Below are positions 1-50,889 of a DNA stretch of 64,000 bases, in pieces (position 1 is the first letter of the stretch; each line of letters opens with the position of its first letter). This DNA comes from Escherichia coli (GTDB lineage Bacteria; Pseudomonadota; Gammaproteobacteria; Enterobacterales; Enterobacteriaceae). The stretch lies in assembly GCF_003334785.1 (NCBI RefSeq), contig NZ_QOWV01000011.1; one strand, written 5' to 3'. The notes under the pieces are model-generated. The model saw nothing but the letters and a program-made list of their open reading frames with translations. It ran no database searches and had not been told where the DNA came from. Made by a program: the position numbers and the translations under genes.

Positions 1-1103
1 TGCGGCCAGGCCGACGCGCCAAAATCCATACCTGGTTCAAAGGTATAGGCACGCCAGTAGAAGCAGACGGCATACATAATAAAGCTGAAGGTTACCAGCC
101 GCCGCATATCCAGTTTATGCGCGAAGCGGCCGATAATCGGCGACAGGATCACCGGAATAATCCCTACCGGCGCAGAGGCCAAACCTGCCCAGGTCGCCGT
201 GTAACCGTAGACCTCCTGCAACAACTGCGGCAGCAGAACAATAGCGCCGAAGTAGAGCATATACGCGAGGCTGATACACAAGCAGCCGATGGTGAAGTTG
301 CGCGACTTAAACAACGACAGATCGACTATCGGGTTATCGTCGGTCAGCTCCCAGACAATCAGGAAGCAGATAGCCACCACCGCCACCACGGTAAGGATGA
401 TAATTTCCTGTGATGAAAACCAGTCCAGCTCTTTACCGCGGTCGAGCATAATCTGCAGGCTGCCGATACCAATAACCAGCAGTGCCAGCCCCACGGCATC
501 AATCCGCCGCCGTTCGGTGCGGGTTTCACGTCCGCGCAGAGTTTGCAGTGTCATCAACACCACCGCCACGCCAATCGGCACGTTGATGAAGAATATCCAG
601 CCCCAGTGGTAATTATCGCTGATATAACCGCCGAGGATCGGGCCGCAAATTGGCGCGACAATCACCGTCATCGACCACAACGCCAGCGCGATCGAGCGTT
701 TGGCTGGCGGGTAGTTATTCAGCAATAGACTTTGCGAAAGCGGGATCAACGGCCCGGCGACAATCCCCTGAATCACGCGGAAGAAGATCAGCATATTCAG
801 GCTGCTGGAGACACCACACGCCCACGACGCAATAGCAAAGGCGATGGTGGACCAAAGGAACAGTTTCACTTCCCCGACGCGCTTTGCCAGCCAGCCGGTA
901 AGCGGGATCGAGATGGCATTCGCCACCCCGAAAGAAGTGATTACCCACGTTCCCTGGCTGAGCGATGAGCCCAGATTCCCGGCGATAGTGGGGATCGCCA
1001 CGTTAGCAATGGTGGAGTCCAGCACCTGCATGAATGTCGCCAGTGACAGCGCAATCGTCATAATGACCAGTTGCGCGCCTTCCAGCGGTTTTTGCTGTTG
1101 CAT
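1..1103 (-). CDS. emrB: Multidrug efflux MFS permease EmrB, partial (N-terminal ~367 codons; 3' end of gene lies before window start)
   Basis: Reverse-strand translation begins MQQQKPLEGAQLVIMT at the CAT (ATG) at 1101-1103 and runs off the window start; matches E. coli EmrB as I recall it; directly downstream of emrA as in K-12. Confidence 0.9.
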   Translation of the reverse strand, partial: MQQQKPLEGAQLVIMTIALSLATFMQVLDSTIANVAIPTIAGNLGSSLSQGTWVITSFGVANAISIPLTGWLAKRVGEVKLFLWSTIAFAIASWACGVSSSLNMLIFFRVIQGIVAGPLIPLSQSLLLNNYPPAKRSIALALWSMTVIVAPICGPILGGYISDNYHWGWIFFINVPIGVAVVLMTLQTLRGRETRTERRRIDAVGLALLVIGIGSLQIMLDRGKELDWFSSQEIIILTVVAVVAICFLIVWELTDDNPIVDLSLFKSRNFTIGCLCISLAYMLYFGAIVLLPQLLQEVYGYTATWAGLASAPVGIIPVILSPIIGRFAHKLDMRRLVTFSFIMYAVCFYWRAYTFEPGMDFGASAWP

Positions 1104-45036: not shown

Positions 45037-47142
45037 ATGTTACGAAAAAGCAAACTTACAGAGATATATAAAAGGTTTGGTTTTACTGAAGAAAATACAG
45101 GTAACGAAAGTATTGCTGTATATTCTATTAAAACAGGGCACTACCATAACGCGGACATACTTCCACTAAATAATGAGGTTAATGTAAATCAAACCTTTGA
45201 AGAATATAGGCAGTTAGGTTATGCATGTCAAATTAAAAAATATCAGTCTTATGAAGAAGCACATAAGGAATTATTTAATGGCTTCTTTAGCGTCGATTCA
45301 ACTAAAGAAAGGTTGATTAAAGATTATAATACTTTCACAGATTCAATTGTAAAAATTCACTCACCTACTGCAACTTATTCCTACATAAATTCAAAATATT
45401 ACTTAAATGGTGTTATTGGCGAAGCTAATGTTGTTACGGAAATATTAGAGAGAATACAACATAGGCGTCCAATTCTGTTTTTGATTGAGGCTGCAGCCGG
45501 TTTTGGAAAGACTTGCACGGCGTATGAATTATTGAGGGAGATTATAGTTAACAATATAGGGAAAATACCATTATTTTCAGAACTATCAAGGAATAGGCAA
45601 GCAAAAATATTCAGGTATGTACTATTAGATGAAATTGATAGAAGTTTTCCTTTGTTAAGCTCAGCCTTAGTAAGGAATGAAATAAGAGCAGGAAATGTAC
45701 CAGTTATACTTGACGGGTTTGATGAACTATTGCATGAAAGTACAAACGGAATTGAAAATAATTATGAAAAAACAGAGCCAATGCTGGAAACAATAAGTGA
45801 GCTTCTAACTGATAGTGCAAAAGTGGTTTTGACAACTCGAAGAACAGCTATATTTGACGGAGATGAATTCCATCAGTGGATAGCATCACATCAAGAAGAT
45901 TTTGATGTGATAAGAATAAGAATTCATGAACCACAAATTGAAGACTGGCTTCCAGGTCAACGTTTAGATGAAATTTCATCGACAGGATTTCCTCTTAACA
46001 AATTATCAAACCCTGTACTGCTATCATTTCTAAGATGCATCGACGACACCGACTTTAATAAAGTTATAAGCGACCCAACAACTATAGTGAGGAAGTATTT
46101 TGATTCAATGCTTGAGCGAGAAAGAAAAAGACAAGATTTATTAATGTCTATTGAAGATCAATATACTATACTAAAAATAATAGCTGACGACATGGTCGAG
46201 GGTAACTACACATCTGAGTCTAGAGAGTATATATCGTTAGTCATAACTGAAAAGAATCAACAACTCTTGGAGGCTACAAGAAAGCTTTATACTGTAGATG
46301 AAAGACCAACTACTGACGAATTAGTTAATAAATTAGCATCGCATGCTCTATTAGATCGGTCAGGCTCAGAAAACCAAGGTATTGGATTTGTTAATGAATT
46401 TGTTCTTGGTAATTTTGTTTCTGAAAATATTATTAATGATAAGTCAAATGAATGGATTGGTGATAAACGTTTTATAGAACCAGCAGTGCAATCTTATATG
46501 CCGAGGATCGATGATGAAAAAGAATTACTTTGGCATAGCTTAGAGTTTGCTTTATATTTTATGTCAGGTAATGATAAAATCCTTTATAGTCATTTGCTTA
46601 TAGGAAAAGTTCCATTAGATTTAAAAAATGATAGTGTTGAGCAATTGTCTATATCAAAACTTTCTTTAGGCGATATAAATATAATACATGATACTATCTT
46701 TGTTGATTGTTCGTTTTTTAGCAGCATATTTACCTGTGGTAATTATAAAAACGTTACATTCGTGAACTGTTCTTTTATAGATTGTAGTTTTAACGAATTA
46801 AGTGGTAGGGAAGATATTTATTTTTTGGGATGTGAATGTGACAATGATGCTATTAATAAAAAATCTGTCGAGATAAACAGTGAAAATGATCACGATATTA
46901 CAGATTGTGATATTTACATCTTAGAGAAGTTCTGTCCCAGAGGGAGTGTTAGCTATCATAAGCATCGGCCTATAAAAGGCTTATGTTCTAACAACAATCA
47001 ATTTCAGTTAAGTGAAATACTCCATTCTTTAGATAAATTGAGGAAAGACGGTCTTTTACTTACGCCAGACAAGCGTTCGTTCCTTGAACTTAACATGGCA
47101 AGAATATCAGAGATTAAAGCAATTCTTGGGAGGAATTTCTGA
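45037..47142 (+). CDS. STAND/NACHT-type P-loop NTPase with C-terminal pentapeptide-like repeats (candidate sensor)
   Basis: ORF track 45028..47142; start at ATG 45037 with AGGAGG RBS 45024-45029. Walker A AAAGFGKT, Walker B hhhhDGFDE (VPVILDGFDELL), sensor-like VVLTTRRT; C-terminal FVDCSF...FVNCSF...FIDCSF five-residue periodicity. Confidence 0.8.
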   Translation: MLRKSKLTEIYKRFGFTEENTGNESIAVYSIKTGHYHNADILPLNNEVNVNQTFEEYRQLGYACQIKKYQSYEEAHKELFNGFFSVDSTKERLIKDYNTFTDSIVKIHSPTATYSYINSKYYLNGVIGEANVVTEILERIQHRRPILFLIEAAAGFGKTCTAYELLREIIVNNIGKIPLFSELSRNRQAKIFRYVLLDEIDRSFPLLSSALVRNEIRAGNVPVILDGFDELLHESTNGIENNYEKTEPMLETISELLTDSAKVVLTTRRTAIFDGDEFHQWIASHQEDFDVIRIRIHEPQIEDWLPGQRLDEISSTGFPLNKLSNPVLLSFLRCIDDTDFNKVISDPTTIVRKYFDSMLERERKRQDLLMSIEDQYTILKIIADDMVEGNYTSESREYISLVITEKNQQLLEATRKLYTVDERPTTDELVNKLASHALLDRSGSENQGIGFVNEFVLGNFVSENIINDKSNEWIGDKRFIEPAVQSYMPRIDDEKELLWHSLEFALYFMSGNDKILYSHLLIGKVPLDLKNDSVEQLSISKLSLGDINIIHDTIFVDCSFFSSIFTCGNYKNVTFVNCSFIDCSFNELSGREDIYFLGCECDNDAINKKSVEINSENDHDITDCDIYILEKFCPRGSVSYHKHRPIKGLCSNNNQFQLSEILHSLDKLRKDGLLLTPDKRSFLELNMARISEIKAILGRNF

Positions 47143-48047
47143 TGTATAACGGGAATGAATTGCGAATTATTCAAAGTTTGCAAAAAGATATAGAAGATGA
47201 ACTTAATCGTATTGGATTACTTTATCGTTTTTTTTCGAGGACAAAATCAGAAAGCTCAATAATTAAGAAATATGAAAAAGAGCCTAATAAATACTCAGAG
47301 GATGGTAAAAAAATTCAAGACTTATTTGGGGTTAGGATAATATTATATTTTCCTGATGATTTATTTATTGCTCAAAAAACACTGGAGAAATTATTCGAAA
47401 TTGAATCTAAAACCGTAGACGAAACCACGGCTAATCTCTTTGCGGCAACTCGATGCAATTACGTCTTTAAGTTACCAGAAGTATTATCAAATGATAGTGT
47501 CTTATTAAAGAAATATTCTTATATTGATACTACTTTTGAAGTCCAATTTAGAACTATTTTATCTGAAGGATGGCATGAAGTTGAGCATGATCTACGCTAT
47601 AAGTGCAAAGAGGATTGGGTTGAGCATAATGACCTTAGTCGCGCGCTGAATGGAATTTACGCCTCTTTGGAAACATCTGATTGGGGAATAATGAAGTTAT
47701 TTGAGGATTTAGCATATAGAAATTATAAGTCAAGCGCATGGTCCGCTATGCTAAGAAATAAATTAAGATTGAGAATGGACGATAAGCTTGATGAAAAGAT
47801 AATTTCAATAATTAATGAGAAAGAGCTTGGTAAAAAGTTTTATAGAATTGACAGAGATCGTTTGTTATCGTTAATGTTAGATTATAATATTGATATACCA
47901 ATTAATCTTAATAATATAATTTACCTTTGTAATTATTTTTTCATAAAATCTACGGAGCTTCAGGATATAGCCCCTGCTTTAATAATGAAAAAGCTTACAG
48001 ATGCTGATGAAAAATTCAATAAAAATACTATTTTAGCATCTAAATAA
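47142..48047 (+). CDS. RelA/SpoT-homologue (small alarmone synthetase / toxSAS-like) nucleotide pyrophosphokinase (candidate effector)
   Basis: 301-aa ORF; start ATG overlaps the upstream TGA (tgATGa); GGGAGG RBS. Synthetase motifs: RTKSESSIIKKYEK (Syn1-like), DLFGVRIIL (DxxGxR), EVQFRTILSEGWHEVEHDLRYK (ExQxRT...W.E..H...YK). Confidence 0.8.
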   Translation: MYNGNELRIIQSLQKDIEDELNRIGLLYRFFSRTKSESSIIKKYEKEPNKYSEDGKKIQDLFGVRIILYFPDDLFIAQKTLEKLFEIESKTVDETTANLFAATRCNYVFKLPEVLSNDSVLLKKYSYIDTTFEVQFRTILSEGWHEVEHDLRYKCKEDWVEHNDLSRALNGIYASLETSDWGIMKLFEDLAYRNYKSSAWSAMLRNKLRLRMDDKLDEKIISIINEKELGKKFYRIDRDRLLSLMLDYNIDIPINLNNIIYLCNYFFIKSTELQDIAPALIMKKLTDADEKFNKNTILASK

Positions 48048-48075
48048 TAACTATCTCCGGCTATTAAGTAGGCCT

Positions 48076-48103
48076 TGTATTTTAGGCCTACTTAAAAAGT
48101 TTC
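48076..48103 (+). terminator. Hairpin immediately after the RelA/SpoT-like gene (possible terminator)
   Basis: aagtaggcc ttgtatttta ggcctactt (9-bp stem) followed by aaaaagttt; U-tract weak. Confidence 0.4.
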
Positions 48104-49099
48104 ATTATGTGAAGTGATGATGATAGCAAATCTGCTATCTTTATGGTTGGATGCGAGAAAATATTTTTATCCCGACACAACAACTGGTAATGATAGAAAA
48201 TTTAAACCCAAAAATGCTACAGTAGCCTCAGCTCACAAACGGAGTATAAAGTGGCGGTTACTCTTTAGTGGGAATACTGTAGATAGTTGATAAACTGGGC
48301 TGGATTTTCTTTTCTAACCGAAGGGAAGAAAAGCAAGGGGAACCCAAAGAAACAAGCGCAGCGGCTTCGTAGGGTTAGCCCTTGCTTCTTTTATAATTGG
48401 CATTATTCATTCAAGAACAATAGGATCTTCGCTTGTACAAGCGAAGCTATAATAAAAAATCAATTAATTATTTTAAAAGTATTAAGCAAGAGCCTATTGA
48501 CATTCGTAAAATAAAAGTTATTTTTAATGTATGCCATAAATAAAAAGTTTTATGTCATATGTATCCTGCACTATGTGCAGTTAATGTGCCACTTGTCCCA
48601 TATATGGGAATATTGGAAAGGTTACTTTGTTTTGAAGTAGCCTTTCGTCCTTCAATATTCACGATTACTTATTGCTATTACCAAGTCCAGTCGAATCGAA
48701 GAACATCTTTTATCTGAAACGACTCCTAATACCAGGTTGAAGCCACAATATCTCTCGCATAAGTAGACCAAAGAAAAATTATGATATTAACTATGTGATT
48801 TTTTTTAGTGTTAAGTTGAATAATTATATACTGGAGAGTTTTCTGTACACTACCAATTGCTGGTTCATCTGTTCTGCCGCTGATGTTTCTGACTAATCTC
48901 CCGGTGACACAGAACTGTCCCTCTCTACCAGCCTTTATTCGACTCAATGTCCGGCTGCTGATACGCAGTTATCCCTTCGTATCAATGACTGACTCTTAAA
49001 CGCAATGCTTTGGTTGCTGGCGTATCTGACAGCTTCTTCGGCGTGAAGGTCGTTGTGTAAGTATACTTCTTGGTTTATTTAGGCTATATAAAACCATGA

Positions 49100-49996
49100 C
49101 TATGACTGGCTGTTTTCAGTAAGAGTCTTATCATCCAAAGAATTTATTCTAGAAATTCTTTTTAACTCATTAAGATAATCAACCTCGTTTTCTAAGAACC
49201 AATGAAGAACTTTAGAGTTGCCAAGTAATTTATTAATATATGACTGGATTATAACGAATTTCAACATATCTGAACCATACTCGGTTTGAAGTTTTTTCGT
49301 TTCTTCCGAAGTTGTTGCCATTTCTTGTTCCAGACGAAGTATGGTTTTTTTTATGTCCTTTTTATAGGGAGTGTTTTTCCCTTTATTTACTATCATCGAT
49401 GACGGTGTTGCATCCAAGATGCTCATTGCAAATTTTTTACTATAATTATCAAAATTAATCATTGTACCGACTGCTTCAATTTGACGAATTGGCTTCATTT
49501 TCCTCAAAACGTCAAATGTAGCCTTAGGTATAGGTTTATCAGAAAGTTTCGCAATTACACTTGGATCTATGCCGTTCATCACATTAGCTTTATCTTTTAT
49601 GGCATCAACAGATATGCCCAAAGCAGCACTAAGTTTTTCAATTGATACTTTTGCCAGAGACTTAATTATCATTCTATGTTCTTCAACTACATTTATATGA
49701 TTCACTTGTTTGTTAGGAGTGAAAGCATCATCTATGCTCGAAAGTATACATGGAGCTTTTTCTATATCTAAGTCTTTTAAAGCCTCAACCCTTAAATGGC
49801 CATCAAGTATCTTAGTGACATCTTTATCTTTGTCATAGAATACTATTATTGGTTCAATAATACCCAAGCTTTCGATAGAGGTAACTATTTGATGATATTT
49901 ATGGCTTCGCTTTACGTTTTCTAATAATTCCTTAGATGGAATTAACTTATTAGTTTCCAGGTAAATAAAATTTTTGCCAAAACGTATCTGAATCAT
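49100..49996 (-). CDS. ParB/Srx-domain protein 2 (ParB-like DNA-binding/nuclease fold)
   Basis: 298-aa ORF with ILDGHLRVEAL motif (ParB-box-like DGxxR) and HTH-like LSAALGISVDAIK; start overlaps stop of upstream paralogue (ATGA). Confidence 0.65.
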   Translation of the reverse strand: MIQIRFGKNFIYLETNKLIPSKELLENVKRSHKYHQIVTSIESLGIIEPIIVFYDKDKDVTKILDGHLRVEALKDLDIEKAPCILSSIDDAFTPNKQVNHINVVEEHRMIIKSLAKVSIEKLSAALGISVDAIKDKANVMNGIDPSVIAKLSDKPIPKATFDVLRKMKPIRQIEAVGTMINFDNYSKKFAMSILDATPSSMIVNKGKNTPYKKDIKKTILRLEQEMATTSEETKKLQTEYGSDMLKFVIIQSYINKLLGNSKVLHWFLENEVDYLNELKRISRINSLDDKTLTENSQS

Positions 49997-50889
49997 TTTG
50001 ATACCTCTTTGTTTACTGGGTTTAATATCTGAGATGGTAGTTCTGAAAGATTCTCTTGTTCAAGTATATTTTGAAAGCTTTTATTCATCATTATGATGTT
50101 AAAAATCTCATTTATTATTAGTAGATTGGTTTTTATAAATTTCGAGTTGTTATAAACAGATTTATGTTCAGCGATACTATTTTCATAAAGCTCAATCAAC
50201 TCCTCTGCAGTCATCCTTTTTGATGGTTTGTGATAATAAAATCCGGCTGCTTTTGCACCTTTATTCCCAACTGTTCTTTGATTTAGAATGTATTTTATCT
50301 TTATAATGTCCCGACTTTTTATTAATTTTTTATCATATGCTTCGGTAAGAATATCTTGTGCTTCCTCAGTTTCACATCTTGCAAATTGCACTGCGAGATA
50401 CAGAGGCAAATTACCCCGTTCGACTGCTGAGAGAAGTTTATGCTCTCCCTTATCAAGAAGCATATTAATACTGCTCACCCAGTTCGATGAATATCCAGTA
50501 ATCTCACTTATTTCGGAGTCTGAAAGTCCTCTGATTTTCATGTCTTTAATCACCTGTAATAACTCATTAGAACGTGGTCTTCTCCTTGCAATGTTTTCAA
50601 CTAAACTCATAACGTAAGCATCTTCTTCTGATACATCTCTTATAATTGCTGGAATAATAGTTTCACCTAATGCAACAAGAGCCTCTATTCTCCCTTGACC
50701 ACAAATTAAAGCATATTTGAAATCGTCTTCATCAATAGCTCTTACGCTTATAGGCTTGCTTAATCCTCTTTTTTTTATGCTTTCCTTTATTTCTTCATGC
50801 ACTACCTTATTTCTTGTTCGTGGGTTAAGAAATTTTATTTTTGCAATCTCAATTTGAATTATTGGGAATTCATTTTTTTCAGGCAGCAT
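49993..50889 (-). CDS. ParB/Srx-domain protein 1
   Basis: 298-aa ORF with LICGQGRIEAL motif and ...LVENIARRRP...; overlaps serine recombinase stop by 11 nt. Confidence 0.65.
   Translation of the reverse strand: MLPEKNEFPIIQIEIAKIKFLNPRTRNKVVHEEIKESIKKRGLSKPISVRAIDEDDFKYALICGQGRIEALVALGETIIPAIIRDVSEEDAYVMSLVENIARRRPRSNELLQVIKDMKIRGLSDSEISEITGYSSNWVSSINMLLDKGEHKLLSAVERGNLPLYLAVQFARCETEEAQDILTEAYDKKLIKSRDIIKIKYILNQRTVGNKGAKAAGFYYHKPSKRMTAEELIELYENSIAEHKSVYNNSKFIKTNLLIINEIFNIIMMNKSFQNILEQENLSELPSQILNPVNKEVSK

Follow-up and report, generated by a model that had tools for sequence, protein, structure and literature searches.

A pentapeptide-repeat β-helix, an acidic linker and a basic winged helix form the C-terminal module of a NACHT NTPase encoded beside a RelA/SpoT-type gene in Escherichia coli

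Positions 46618-47139 of the window, the whole 64,000-nucleotide stretch of Escherichia coli DNA that we analysed, encode the module that a bacterial NLR-related NACHT NTPase carries at its C-terminus, in the position of a sensor. This module has three parts: a short acidic pentapeptide-repeat β-helix (~14 pentads), then an acidic linker of variable sequence, and finally a basic winged helix (Table 1). A sensor role for the module is plausible, judging from its position and its evolutionary rate. With confidence slightly above even, we explain the locus as a phage-triggered NACHT NTPase that carries this β-helix/linker/winged-helix module in the sensor position and acts through a RelA/SpoT effector.

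The protein has the domain order NA-iREase2, NACHT, pentapeptide, winged helix. RefSeq places its start at the ATG at 45037 (WP_000944877.1, 701 aa); we counted residues from the GTG at 45028. The peptide singled out by the initial annotation was found at the coordinates given for it, in frame with the open reading frame 45028..47142 (+ strand). Both the NA-iREase2 match and the NACHT match in Pfam, the latter weak (E=0.008), lay N-terminal to the repeat module. The central domain has the Walker A (GxxGxGK[ST]) and Walker B (hhhhDGhDE) motifs of NACHT/STAND NTPases, followed by helical and winged-helix arms, and G158, G160, K161, T162 and D229-E233 were invariant or almost invariant across 118 sequences. 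The solved folds nearest to the full-length AF2 model in Foldseek were those of Avs4, NOD2 and NLRP3, at E values of ~1e-8.

Table 1. Features of the NACHT gene, its protein domains and the partner gene (positions in the window)
Feature	Coordinates	Strand	Residues	Remarks
NACHT (NLR-related STAND NTPase) gene	45028..47142	+	704 aa from GTG 45028	stop TGA 47140-47142; ORF list, RefSeq annotation
NA-iREase2 (NACHT-associated inactive restriction-endonuclease fold)	45052..45405	+	9-126	Pfam PF22723, E=3.2e-33
NACHT NTPase module with helical and winged-helix arms	45406..46602	+	127-525	
Walker A AAAGFGKT	45499-45513 (G158-T162)	+	G158-T162	
Walker B DGFDE	45712-45726	+	D229-E233	
Pentapeptide-repeat right-handed β-helix	46618..46842	+	~531-605	~14 short strands; net charge -8
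Strict core, seven consecutive pentads	46687..46791	+	554-588	HDTIF VDCSF FSSIF TCGNY KNVTF VNCSF IDCSF
Variable acidic linker	46843..46902	+	606-625	between 'CECDND' and 'DCDIY'
Winged-helix domain	46903..47139	+	626-704	
RelA/SpoT-type nucleotidyltransferase	47142..48047	+	301 aa	downstream; start overlaps NACHT stop (TGATG)

The five-residue periodicity proposed in the initial annotation was borne out by residue spacing and by conservation. In the strict core, the aromatic residues F558, F563, F568, Y573, F578, F583 and F588 are spaced exactly five residues apart, each with a small residue at i-2 (T556, C561, S566, G571, V576, C581 and C586, respectively). The query sequence alone contained six F..F pairs at lag 5 where 2.0 would be expected, a count reached by 54 out of 5000 shuffles; a general hydrophobic-phase test on the query alone was not significant (86/500 shuffles). 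Because the query-only periodicity was weakly significant, we took conservation in the family as the main evidence. Across 118 homologues, reaching down to ~30% identity, the repeat was conserved in register: F558 was kept in 117 out of 118 sequences, C561 in 108, F563 in 113, F578 in 115, C581 in 112, F583 in 114 and C586 in 106. The F phase had a mean column entropy of 1.04 bits and the C phase one of 1.76 bits, and the three outward-facing phases were near-random (2.7-3.1 bits).

The AF2 model, with a pLDDT of ~90 overall and 89-97 for ten-residue blocks across the repeat, showed a right-handed quadrilateral β-helix with four pentads per coil. Pentapeptide repeats have Leu or Phe at their centre, position i, and a small residue (A/C/S/T/V) at i-2, with the two side chains facing inward; the seven core pentads fit this pattern, with F or Y at i and C, T, S, V or G at i-2. 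From the ~14 strands in the model we estimated ~3.5 coils, with small bulges at residues 548-552 and 590-596. A family profile matched AlbG (1.4e-12), MfpA (1.3e-8) and the Qnr proteins EfsQnr and QnrB1 (~1e-6), as well as SV2C and HalA (Hailong), whose ligand is oligo-dA. The query alone was borderline in Pfam (Pentapeptide_4, E=0.007 at full length and 0.0006 for the C-terminus). When 61 family members were compared with the Pfam pentapeptide families, 31 matched at E<=1e-3 and 57 at E<=0.1. NCBIfam returned sub-threshold matches only (HalA, 5.5e-4; QnrS, 0.018), which served as leads rather than evidence. The model, the family profile and Pfam thus agree with the earlier proposal of a short pentapeptide β-helix in the sensor position, and neither a model lacking a repeat fold nor poor conservation of the repeat in homologues, the two outcomes named as telling against it, was found.

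The top profile matches, AlbG, MfpA, EfsQnr and QnrB1, are DNA-mimicking, topoisomerase-binding proteins, and the β-helix is acidic in 93% of homologues and is followed by an acidic linker. It could accordingly be a DNA-mimic bait like MfpA, Qnr or AlbG, with the NTPase being activated when a phage DNA-binding enzyme (a topoisomerase, terminase, polymerase or nuclease) is captured. We consider this unlikely. MfpA and Qnr are long dimeric rods that mimic DNA, with ~8 coils per subunit, and their subclass is marked by gyrase binding and a charge pattern like that of B-DNA. By contrast, the present β-helix shares the acidity of this topoisomerase-protection subclass (-8) but not its length: its ~14 pentads, which take up ~75 of the 704 residues of the protein, make ~3.5 coils, too few to imitate gyrase-length DNA. 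Moreover, profile matches among pentapeptide proteins mostly show a common repeat and not a common function, and an equally good structural match was the luminal domain of SV2C, a protein receptor. Kaur et al. (2020), on the other side, noted that DNA-binding proteins could be what the pentapeptide repeats of conflict systems act on.

The initial annotation had also described a Cys/His/Asp-rich stretch following the repeat. Its letters are present, with Cys 602, 604, 627, 636 and 653 and His 622, 644 and 646 falling within ~50 residues of the E. coli sequence, but the stretch is neither conserved nor a distinct module, being made up of the acidic linker and the winged helix. The clustering of five Cys and three His residues could indicate a metal-binding or redox-sensing module. 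Among 118 homologues, however, C604 was replaced by S, D, G or A in most sequences, C627 was Cys in only 32, C636 was Trp in 90, the C653 column held mainly Cys (44), Tyr (34) and Phe (16), and H622 and H644 were variable. Conserved positions in the region were C602 (102/118), which belongs to the last β-helix coil, and K645, H646 and R647. Two of the region's Cys and His residues, C602 and H646, were thus conserved, compared with the at least three to four conserved ligands that we looked for in a metal module. The stretch also covers three separate structural elements in the model, and no Zn-finger family was matched in Pfam or the PDB. We rejected the metal-binding reading for lack of Cys/His conservation, regarding it as highly improbable; the Cys/His-rich look of the E. 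coli sequence is incidental. The linker had a mean identity to the query of 13%, an entropy of 3.44 bits and a pLDDT of 58 for the block 611-620, and was net negative in 94% of homologues.

The C-terminal domain has the helix-strand-helix-helix-β-hairpin order of a winged helix, with the conserved motifs (V/I)LEKFWP.G(R/S)...KHRPIK and ..L(K/R)KxG.L...K..F.ELN...I.EIK..LGR. No other domain of the protein is basic; the median charge of the winged helix is +5, and its charge is positive in 99% of homologues. Its best match was RPA32C, which we take to be a protein-binding rather than a DNA-binding domain; other matches were the cullin WHB and the DNA-binding proteins SarA, MarR, TubR and F93. 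Since RPA32C is presumably protein-binding and the cullin WHB is not a DNA-binding regulator, nucleic-acid binding does not follow from the fold alone.

Of the folded domains, the β-helix is the least conserved, with 31% identity to the query, compared with 60% for the nucleotide-binding domain and 40% for the winged helix. This ranking was kept among close relatives; for example, the Citrobacter protein was 89% identical, with 82% in the β-helix and 93% in the nucleotide-binding domain. Alternatively, the positions of a solenoid that face the solvent may be weakly constrained, which could by itself explain the faster evolution of the β-helix. It is possible, though we doubt it, that the β-helix acts solely as a rigid spacer or as a scaffold for oligomerisation or autoinhibition and that another domain is the sensor: the basic winged helix, for phage DNA, RNA or a nucleic-acid intermediate, or the N-terminal inactive-REase domain, for DNA. 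The winged helix, as the sole basic domain with a resemblance to SarA, MarR, TubR and F93, would fit such a division of labour, as would the shortness of the β-helix (~3.5 coils). Table S1 of Kibby et al. (bioRxiv 10.1101/2022.07.19.500537) lists many NACHT proteins with a short, linker-like pentapeptide segment between NACHT and a β-propeller, and papers from the Aravind laboratory place pentapeptide repeats among 'supersecondary-structure/scaffolding' elements. The β-helix surface is nevertheless more variable than the winged helix, the pattern expected under phage selection, and the RPA32C and cullin WHB matches weaken the case for a nucleic-acid-binding winged helix.

Over 1100 homologues of the NACHT protein were found, ~700 aa in length. 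The C-terminal 231 aa matched only ~700-aa chains (at residues ~470-705) or contig-end fragments of such chains, and in AFDB50 the same tandem recurred among NA-iREase2-NACHT proteins from Proteobacteria, Bacteroidota, Firmicutes and Desulfobacterota. The module is family-specific and always sits on the same NA-iREase2-NACHT chassis. Two apparently stand-alone C-terminal modules, P0121 and P0128, were rejected; they start at contig ends and represent truncated genes.

The suggestion that this is an unusual, new sensor did not hold. Clade 15 in Table S1 of Kibby et al. contains 'NA-iREase2+NACHT+Pentapeptide' entries, for example from V. cholerae (WP_142737953.1), Paenibacillus (WP_020618620.1) and Desulfobotulus (WP_139448996.1), so the architecture, with NA-iREase2 at the N-terminus and the pentapeptide at the C-terminus as in our protein, was already catalogued. 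'Pentapeptide' appears 162 times in that table of NACHT proteins, and some homologues are already named 'pentapeptide repeat-containing protein' in NCBI and UniProt. The clade-15 entries have the same domain order, size (~700 aa) and repeat position as the E. coli protein (554-585 in the V. cholerae member, 554-588 here), and our own searches recovered the Desulfobotulus protein and a V. cholerae homologue (P0048, 60% identical). The E. coli accession is absent from Table S1, in which the C-terminal winged helix of clade-15 entries is not annotated. The RelA/SpoT partner was not mentioned anywhere in the text and supplementary tables of Kibby et al. that we searched, and we found no description of the C-terminal winged helix, the RelA/SpoT pairing or a NACHT-RelA/SpoT system in the literature searched; 'NA-iREase' occurred in no main text of that literature. 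Kibby et al. tested 27 bNACHT genes, none of them from this family; those of clade 15 were bNACHT09, 34 and 69. bNACHT09 and 34 have other architectures, and we judged bNACHT69 to belong to a different family because its visible start, MNWSDLENRVKQFSRLIYNRDSSSISISGMQFDC..., the part compared, is unrelated to the E. coli protein. PADLOC and PHROGs had no model for the NACHT protein, and the main text of a 2026 STAND survey (10.64898/2026.01.04.697583) mentions neither pentapeptide nor RelA/SpoT proteins. The finding as submitted therefore mostly re-discovers a catalogued architecture.

The partner gene was directly downstream of the NACHT gene in 7 out of 7 contexts examined, and the overlap of the two genes in the window (TGATG) suggests translational coupling. 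Its product matched Pfam RelA_SpoT (PF04607, E=7.8e-15), and its profile matched small alarmone synthetases in the PDB (RelP, RelQ and YwaC) at 1.5e-9 or weaker. Both RSH synthetase motifs, DxxGxR and ExQxRT, are present, and D60, G63, R65, E133, Q135, R137 and T138, which we take to be catalytic, were invariant in 35 sequences. The conserved basic C-terminal half had no sequence match to any solved structure. Partner homologues occurred in many of the same genomes as the NACHT protein, with parallel levels of identity; other matches were a weak one to PADLOC PDC-S33 and some to PHROG families of unknown function. The RelA/SpoT enzyme is the presumed effector of the NACHT protein, given the adjacency of the genes. 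The locus lies in a low-GC mobile island at ssrA, found in ~1% of complete E. coli genomes; in the window, an integrase, a recombinase, ParB-like genes and a relaxase adjoin the tmRNA gene. Neighbours in other hosts included AAA_15/21 ATPases, a kinase with a PP2C, AAA_13 and MqsA.

By analogy with characterised Avs and bNACHT proteins, the C-terminal module would keep the NTPase closed in an ADP-bound resting state. A phage-derived trigger, most likely a protein or else a nucleic acid, would bind the variable outer faces of the β-helix, the basic winged helix or both, releasing autoinhibition so that the nucleotide can be exchanged and the protein can oligomerise. Once clustered, the inactive-REase adaptor domains at the N-termini would recruit or activate the RelA/SpoT enzyme, which may stop growth through a toxic alarmone, for instance (pp)pApp or (p)ppGpp, or through pyrophosphorylation of tRNA 3' ends, with abortive infection as the outcome. 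We know of no characterised NACHT or Avs protein whose sensor is a pentapeptide repeat, nor of any NLR-like protein shown to signal through a RelA/SpoT enzyme. We tentatively put forward, as a less probable extension, that the NACHT and RelA/SpoT proteins form an uncharacterised anti-phage system with an output undescribed for NLR-like proteins, in which a compact β-helix/winged-helix module senses infection and switches on a separate alarmone-making or tRNA-pyrophosphorylating enzyme; the basic winged helix may be covered by the acidic β-helix and linker of the same molecule, which would serve as a DNA mimic, and be exposed once a phage factor pushes this mimic aside. The family is widespread, with its many homologues spread over several phyla, and the operon is small (3 kb) and native to E. 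coli, a standard phage-defence host. It is thus a convenient entry point for finding out what binds to a pentapeptide β-helix and by what means an oligomerised STAND protein can switch on a nucleotidyltransferase in trans.

Among known systems, the Rfr-fold proteins (MfpA, Qnr, AlbG, the SV2 luminal domain and cyanobacterial Rfr/Alr proteins) share with the E. coli repeat the aromatic residue or Leu at i, the small residue at i-2 and the four-sided right-handed β-helix seen in the model. Unlike in those proteins, the repeat here is embedded as a single domain within a STAND protein; Cys dominates at i-2, and Asp or Asn occurs at i+2 rather than at i-1 as in the canonical A(D/N)LXX. The toxSAS and CapRel-type effectors resemble the partner in being small RelA/SpoT nucleotidyltransferases with intact motifs, encoded on a mobile island next to a presumed regulator. 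Their regulator is a small antitoxin or a fused pseudo-zinc-finger domain, whereas the one here is a 700-aa NACHT NTPase, and we found no paper linking toxSAS with NACHT or NLR proteins in the literature searched. Like Avs1-4, with their TPR sensors, and bNACHT01, 11 and 25, with SNaCT, the E. coli protein is built in three parts, with an output domain at the N-terminus, a STAND NTPase in the middle and the sensor position at the C-terminus, and its C-terminus evolves faster than the NTPase, as Kibby et al. report for SNaCT. It differs from the Avs and bNACHT proteins in that the sensor-position module is a pentapeptide β-helix with a winged helix instead of TPR or SNaCT, an inactive nuclease is predicted as the N-terminal domain, and the enzymatic effector is apparently a separate RelA/SpoT protein.

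The region at 46560-47139, annotated initially as a pentapeptide-like repeat followed by a Cys-rich stretch, corresponds to the final 194 codons of an open reading frame (45028..47142, plus strand) that encodes 704 amino acids from the GTG at 45028, from which we count residues. RefSeq names the product "NACHT domain-containing protein" (WP_000944877.1) and places its start at ATG 45037. Its N-terminal NA-iREase2 domain, by name an inactive restriction endonuclease, has D43 and N41 invariant among closer homologues (alignment A1). We found more than 1100 homologues, nearly all of ~700 amino acids. The full-length AF2 model had a mean pLDDT of 90.8 and a pTM of 0.78, and its nearest solved folds were Avs4 bound to phage portal, NOD2 and NLRP3.

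The proposed pentapeptide β-helix was correct and well supported. Aromatic residues recur at an exact five-residue spacing (F558, F563, F568, Y573, F578, F583 and F588), preceded two positions earlier by T, C, S, G, V, C and C, respectively. In the query alone this signal was only modestly unusual, with six F-F pairs at lag 5 versus 2.0 expected (54 of 5000 shuffles reached six), and a general hydrophobic-phase test on the query was not significant. We regard evolutionary conservation as the decisive evidence for the periodicity. In an alignment of 118 homologues, down to ~30% identity, the inward-facing columns were retained at F558 (117), C561 (108), F563 (113), F578 (115), C581 (112), F583 (114) and C586 (106). 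Mean entropy was lower at the two core phases (1.04 and 1.76 bits) than at the other three pentad positions (2.7-3.1 bits), which face outward and are close to random. A profile (A3) built from 61 members over their C-terminal 179 residues matched the solved proteins AlbG (E 1.4e-12), MfpA (E 1.3e-8), EfsQnr and QnrB1 (both E ~1e-6), HalA (E 5e-6) and SV2C (E 7e-6). When the 61 members were scanned singly against Pfam, 31 matched Pentapeptide_4 at E<=1e-3 and 57 at E<=0.1. The AF2 model placed 14 short strands with five-residue spacing in residues 532-604 (pLDDT 89-97 by 10-residue block); residues 548-552 and 590-596 form small bulges. Modelling residues 526-704 on their own gave an agreeing result (pLDDT 90.3). 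Because the model contains a β-helix and the repeat core is kept among the 118 homologues, neither objection foreseen for this idea, a missing β-helix or poor conservation, applies, and it stands unrefuted.

By contrast with the repeat, the Cys/His/Asp-rich module described after it did not prove real. Across the 118 homologues, position 604 is mostly S, D, G or A; 32 have Cys at 627 and 90 have Trp in place of C636. Position 653 holds C, Y or F, and H622 and H644 are variable. Conservation is limited to the K645-H646-R647 motif and to C602, which supplies the small inward residue of the final β-helix coil; in the model the stretch splits into three elements. The linker among them shows 13% identity to the query, and its block 611-620 has a pLDDT of 58. 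The winged helix (626-704) is the sole basic part of the protein, with a net charge of +4 in the query (homologue median +5, positive in 99%); the β-helix (-8) and linker (-3) are acidic like the remainder. The acidic β-helix could alternatively be a bait that mimics DNA, as MfpA and Qnr do, although at ~3.5 coils it is short for that role; MfpA and Qnr have ~8 coils.

An exhaustive phmmer search of 1.84 billion representatives, with the last 231 residues as query, recovered 112 proteins, and the region lay at ~470-705 of a ~700-residue chain in every full-length match. The two short matches examined as candidates for a stand-alone module begin at contig ends and are truncated genes. Foldseek recovered the β-helix and winged-helix tandem in AFDB50 (TM 0.6-0.9) in NA-iREase2-NACHT proteins of Gammaproteobacteria, Nitrosomonas, Bacteroidota, Firmicutes and Desulfobacterota; this recurrence indicates that the architecture is old and fixed. 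The β-helix was the least conserved folded domain among the 118 sequences. Close relatives keep the same ranking, with the β-helix at 82% versus 93% for the nucleotide-binding domain in Citrobacter, and 72% versus 90% in a Morganellaceae protein. This ranking fits a recognition surface under diversifying pressure, and it also fits a mere lack of constraint on exposed solenoid positions. The β-helix might be only a spacer or scaffold, the sensor being the N-terminal domain or the basic winged helix.

Coordinates of features of the NACHT locus, its surroundings and related proteins (identity, mean to the query over 118 sequences)
Feature	Position	Strand	Evidence or remark	Identity
NA-iREase2	residues 9-126; 45052-45405	+	Pfam E=3.2e-33	40%
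Nucleotide-binding domain	residues 127-300			60%
NACHT	residues 153-274		Pfam, weak match	
Helical arms	residues 301-525			47%
Pentapeptide β-helix	residues 530-605			31%
SV2 luminal domain	residues 555-602		Pfam, borderline	
Pentapeptide_4	residues 557-590		Pfam, borderline, E=0.007	
Cys/His element 1	last β-helix coil		model; contains LGCECDN	
Cys/His element 2	residues 606-625		model; variable acidic linker	
Cys/His element 3	first helix of compact domain 626-704		model	
C-terminal winged helix	residues 626-702			40%
RelA_SpoT nucleotidyltransferase	47142-48047	+	Pfam E=7.8e-15	
Low-GC island	~24000-52000		adjoins ssrA	
tRNA, CAT anticodon	27889-27964	+	ARAGORN, tRNA-Met	
Ankyrin-repeat gene	41935-42888	-	in island	
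ParB/RepB/Spo0J-like gene 1	49100-49996	-		
ParB/RepB/Spo0J-like gene 2	49993-50889	-	adjacent to gene 1	
tmRNA gene ssrA	54114-54476	-		
Pentapeptide, V. cholerae WP_142737953.1	residues 554-585		Kibby et al. clade 15	
Pentapeptide, Paenibacillus WP_020618620.1	residues 550-589		Kibby et al. clade 15	
Pentapeptide, Desulfobotulus WP_139448996.1	residues 545-587		Kibby et al. clade 15	

The RelA/SpoT-type partner gene starts at an ATG that overlaps the stop codon of the NACHT gene (TGATG). In each of the seven contexts examined, such a gene came directly after the NACHT gene: the E. coli window, Pseudomonas, Idiomarina and four metagenomic contigs, among them those of the most divergent members. 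Partner homologues came from many of the same genomes as the NACHT homologues, with parallel identity levels. Residues D60, G63, R65, E133, Q135 and R137 are invariant and were identified from sequence as the catalytic DxxGxR and ExQxRT motifs; the nearest solved relatives were the small alarmone synthetases RelP, RelQ and YwaC. The conserved C-terminal half (~170-301), rich in invariant Lys and Arg, had no match in Pfam or, by sequence, among solved structures, and could be a tRNA-binding or NACHT-docking domain. The analysis shows the domain identities, domain order and operon structure; beyond these, Avs and bNACHT proteins serve as the analogy from which we infer a mechanism. The C-terminal module would hold the NTPase closed until a phage-derived trigger bound the β-helix faces and/or the winged helix. 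Nucleotide exchange and oligomerisation would follow, and the clustered N-terminal inactive-REase domains would recruit or activate the RelA/SpoT enzyme, which would halt growth via a toxic alarmone or tRNA pyrophosphorylation, the routes used by known toxSAS enzymes.

The window is E. coli chromosome. Megablast of 44000-48500 matched complete E. coli genomes at 100% identity; at least 80% of this 4.5-kb query is present in 55 out of 5426 genomes, and 442 E. coli genomes matched part of it, 350 of them at only 90-95% identity. GC content around the NACHT gene is 32-44% versus ~50% in the flanks. Island genes annotated by RefSeq encode an integrase, a serine-type "recombinase family" protein, a relaxase and two ParB-like proteins; the island resembles an integrative mobilisable element that carries the NACHT operon. 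In the matching RefSeq genome, two adjacent DUF4928 family fragments (~43925-44381, minus strand) lie shortly before the NACHT gene in the opposite orientation; one is marked partial, and they may be a decayed neighbouring gene. The same genome annotates the CAT tRNA as tRNA-Ile, which would mean a lysidine-modified CAT. In the window this tRNA lies ~2 kb further right than strain FDAARGOS_1248 coordinates predict, so relative to that strain the window's strain has a ~2-kb indel somewhere between ~27.9 and ~41.9 kb. On contigs of other hosts carrying the operon (L002/L003, 1-4712; L006, 4593-6282; L007, 3611-4495), an AAA_15/AAA_21 ATPase and a Ser/Thr kinase with PP2C phosphatase occur nearby, as do DUF3800, an AAA_13 ATPase, an MvaT-like protein and an MqsA-like antitoxin; these gene types are typical of defence islands and mobile elements.

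In the literature we searched, neither the C-terminal winged helix nor the RelA/SpoT pairing was described, and no paper connected toxSAS to NACHT or NLR proteins. In the survey by Kibby et al. (bioRxiv 10.1101/2022.07.19.500537), "Pentapeptide repeat (Pp)" is one of the C-terminal domains given for bacterial NACHT proteins; "Pentapeptide" occurs 162 times in their Table S1, and clade 15 contains "NA-iREase2+NACHT+Pentapeptide" entries. Those entries belong to the same family as the query; our homologue searches also recovered a V. cholerae homologue and the Desulfobotulus protein, and some homologues already bear the name "pentapeptide repeat-containing protein" in NCBI and UniProt. Because this architecture was already catalogued, the suggestion of an unusual new sensor is not supported. 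Among the clade-15 genes tested in that study (bNACHT09, 34 and 69), bNACHT09 and bNACHT34 have architectures other than that of the query, and the start of bNACHT69, the visible part to which the comparison applies, is unrelated. The NACHT protein belongs to a known kind of system and is itself uncharacterised, and any novelty may be functional: what the putative sensor formed by pentapeptide repeat and winged helix recognises, and whether a RelA/SpoT effector can be driven by a NACHT oligomer.
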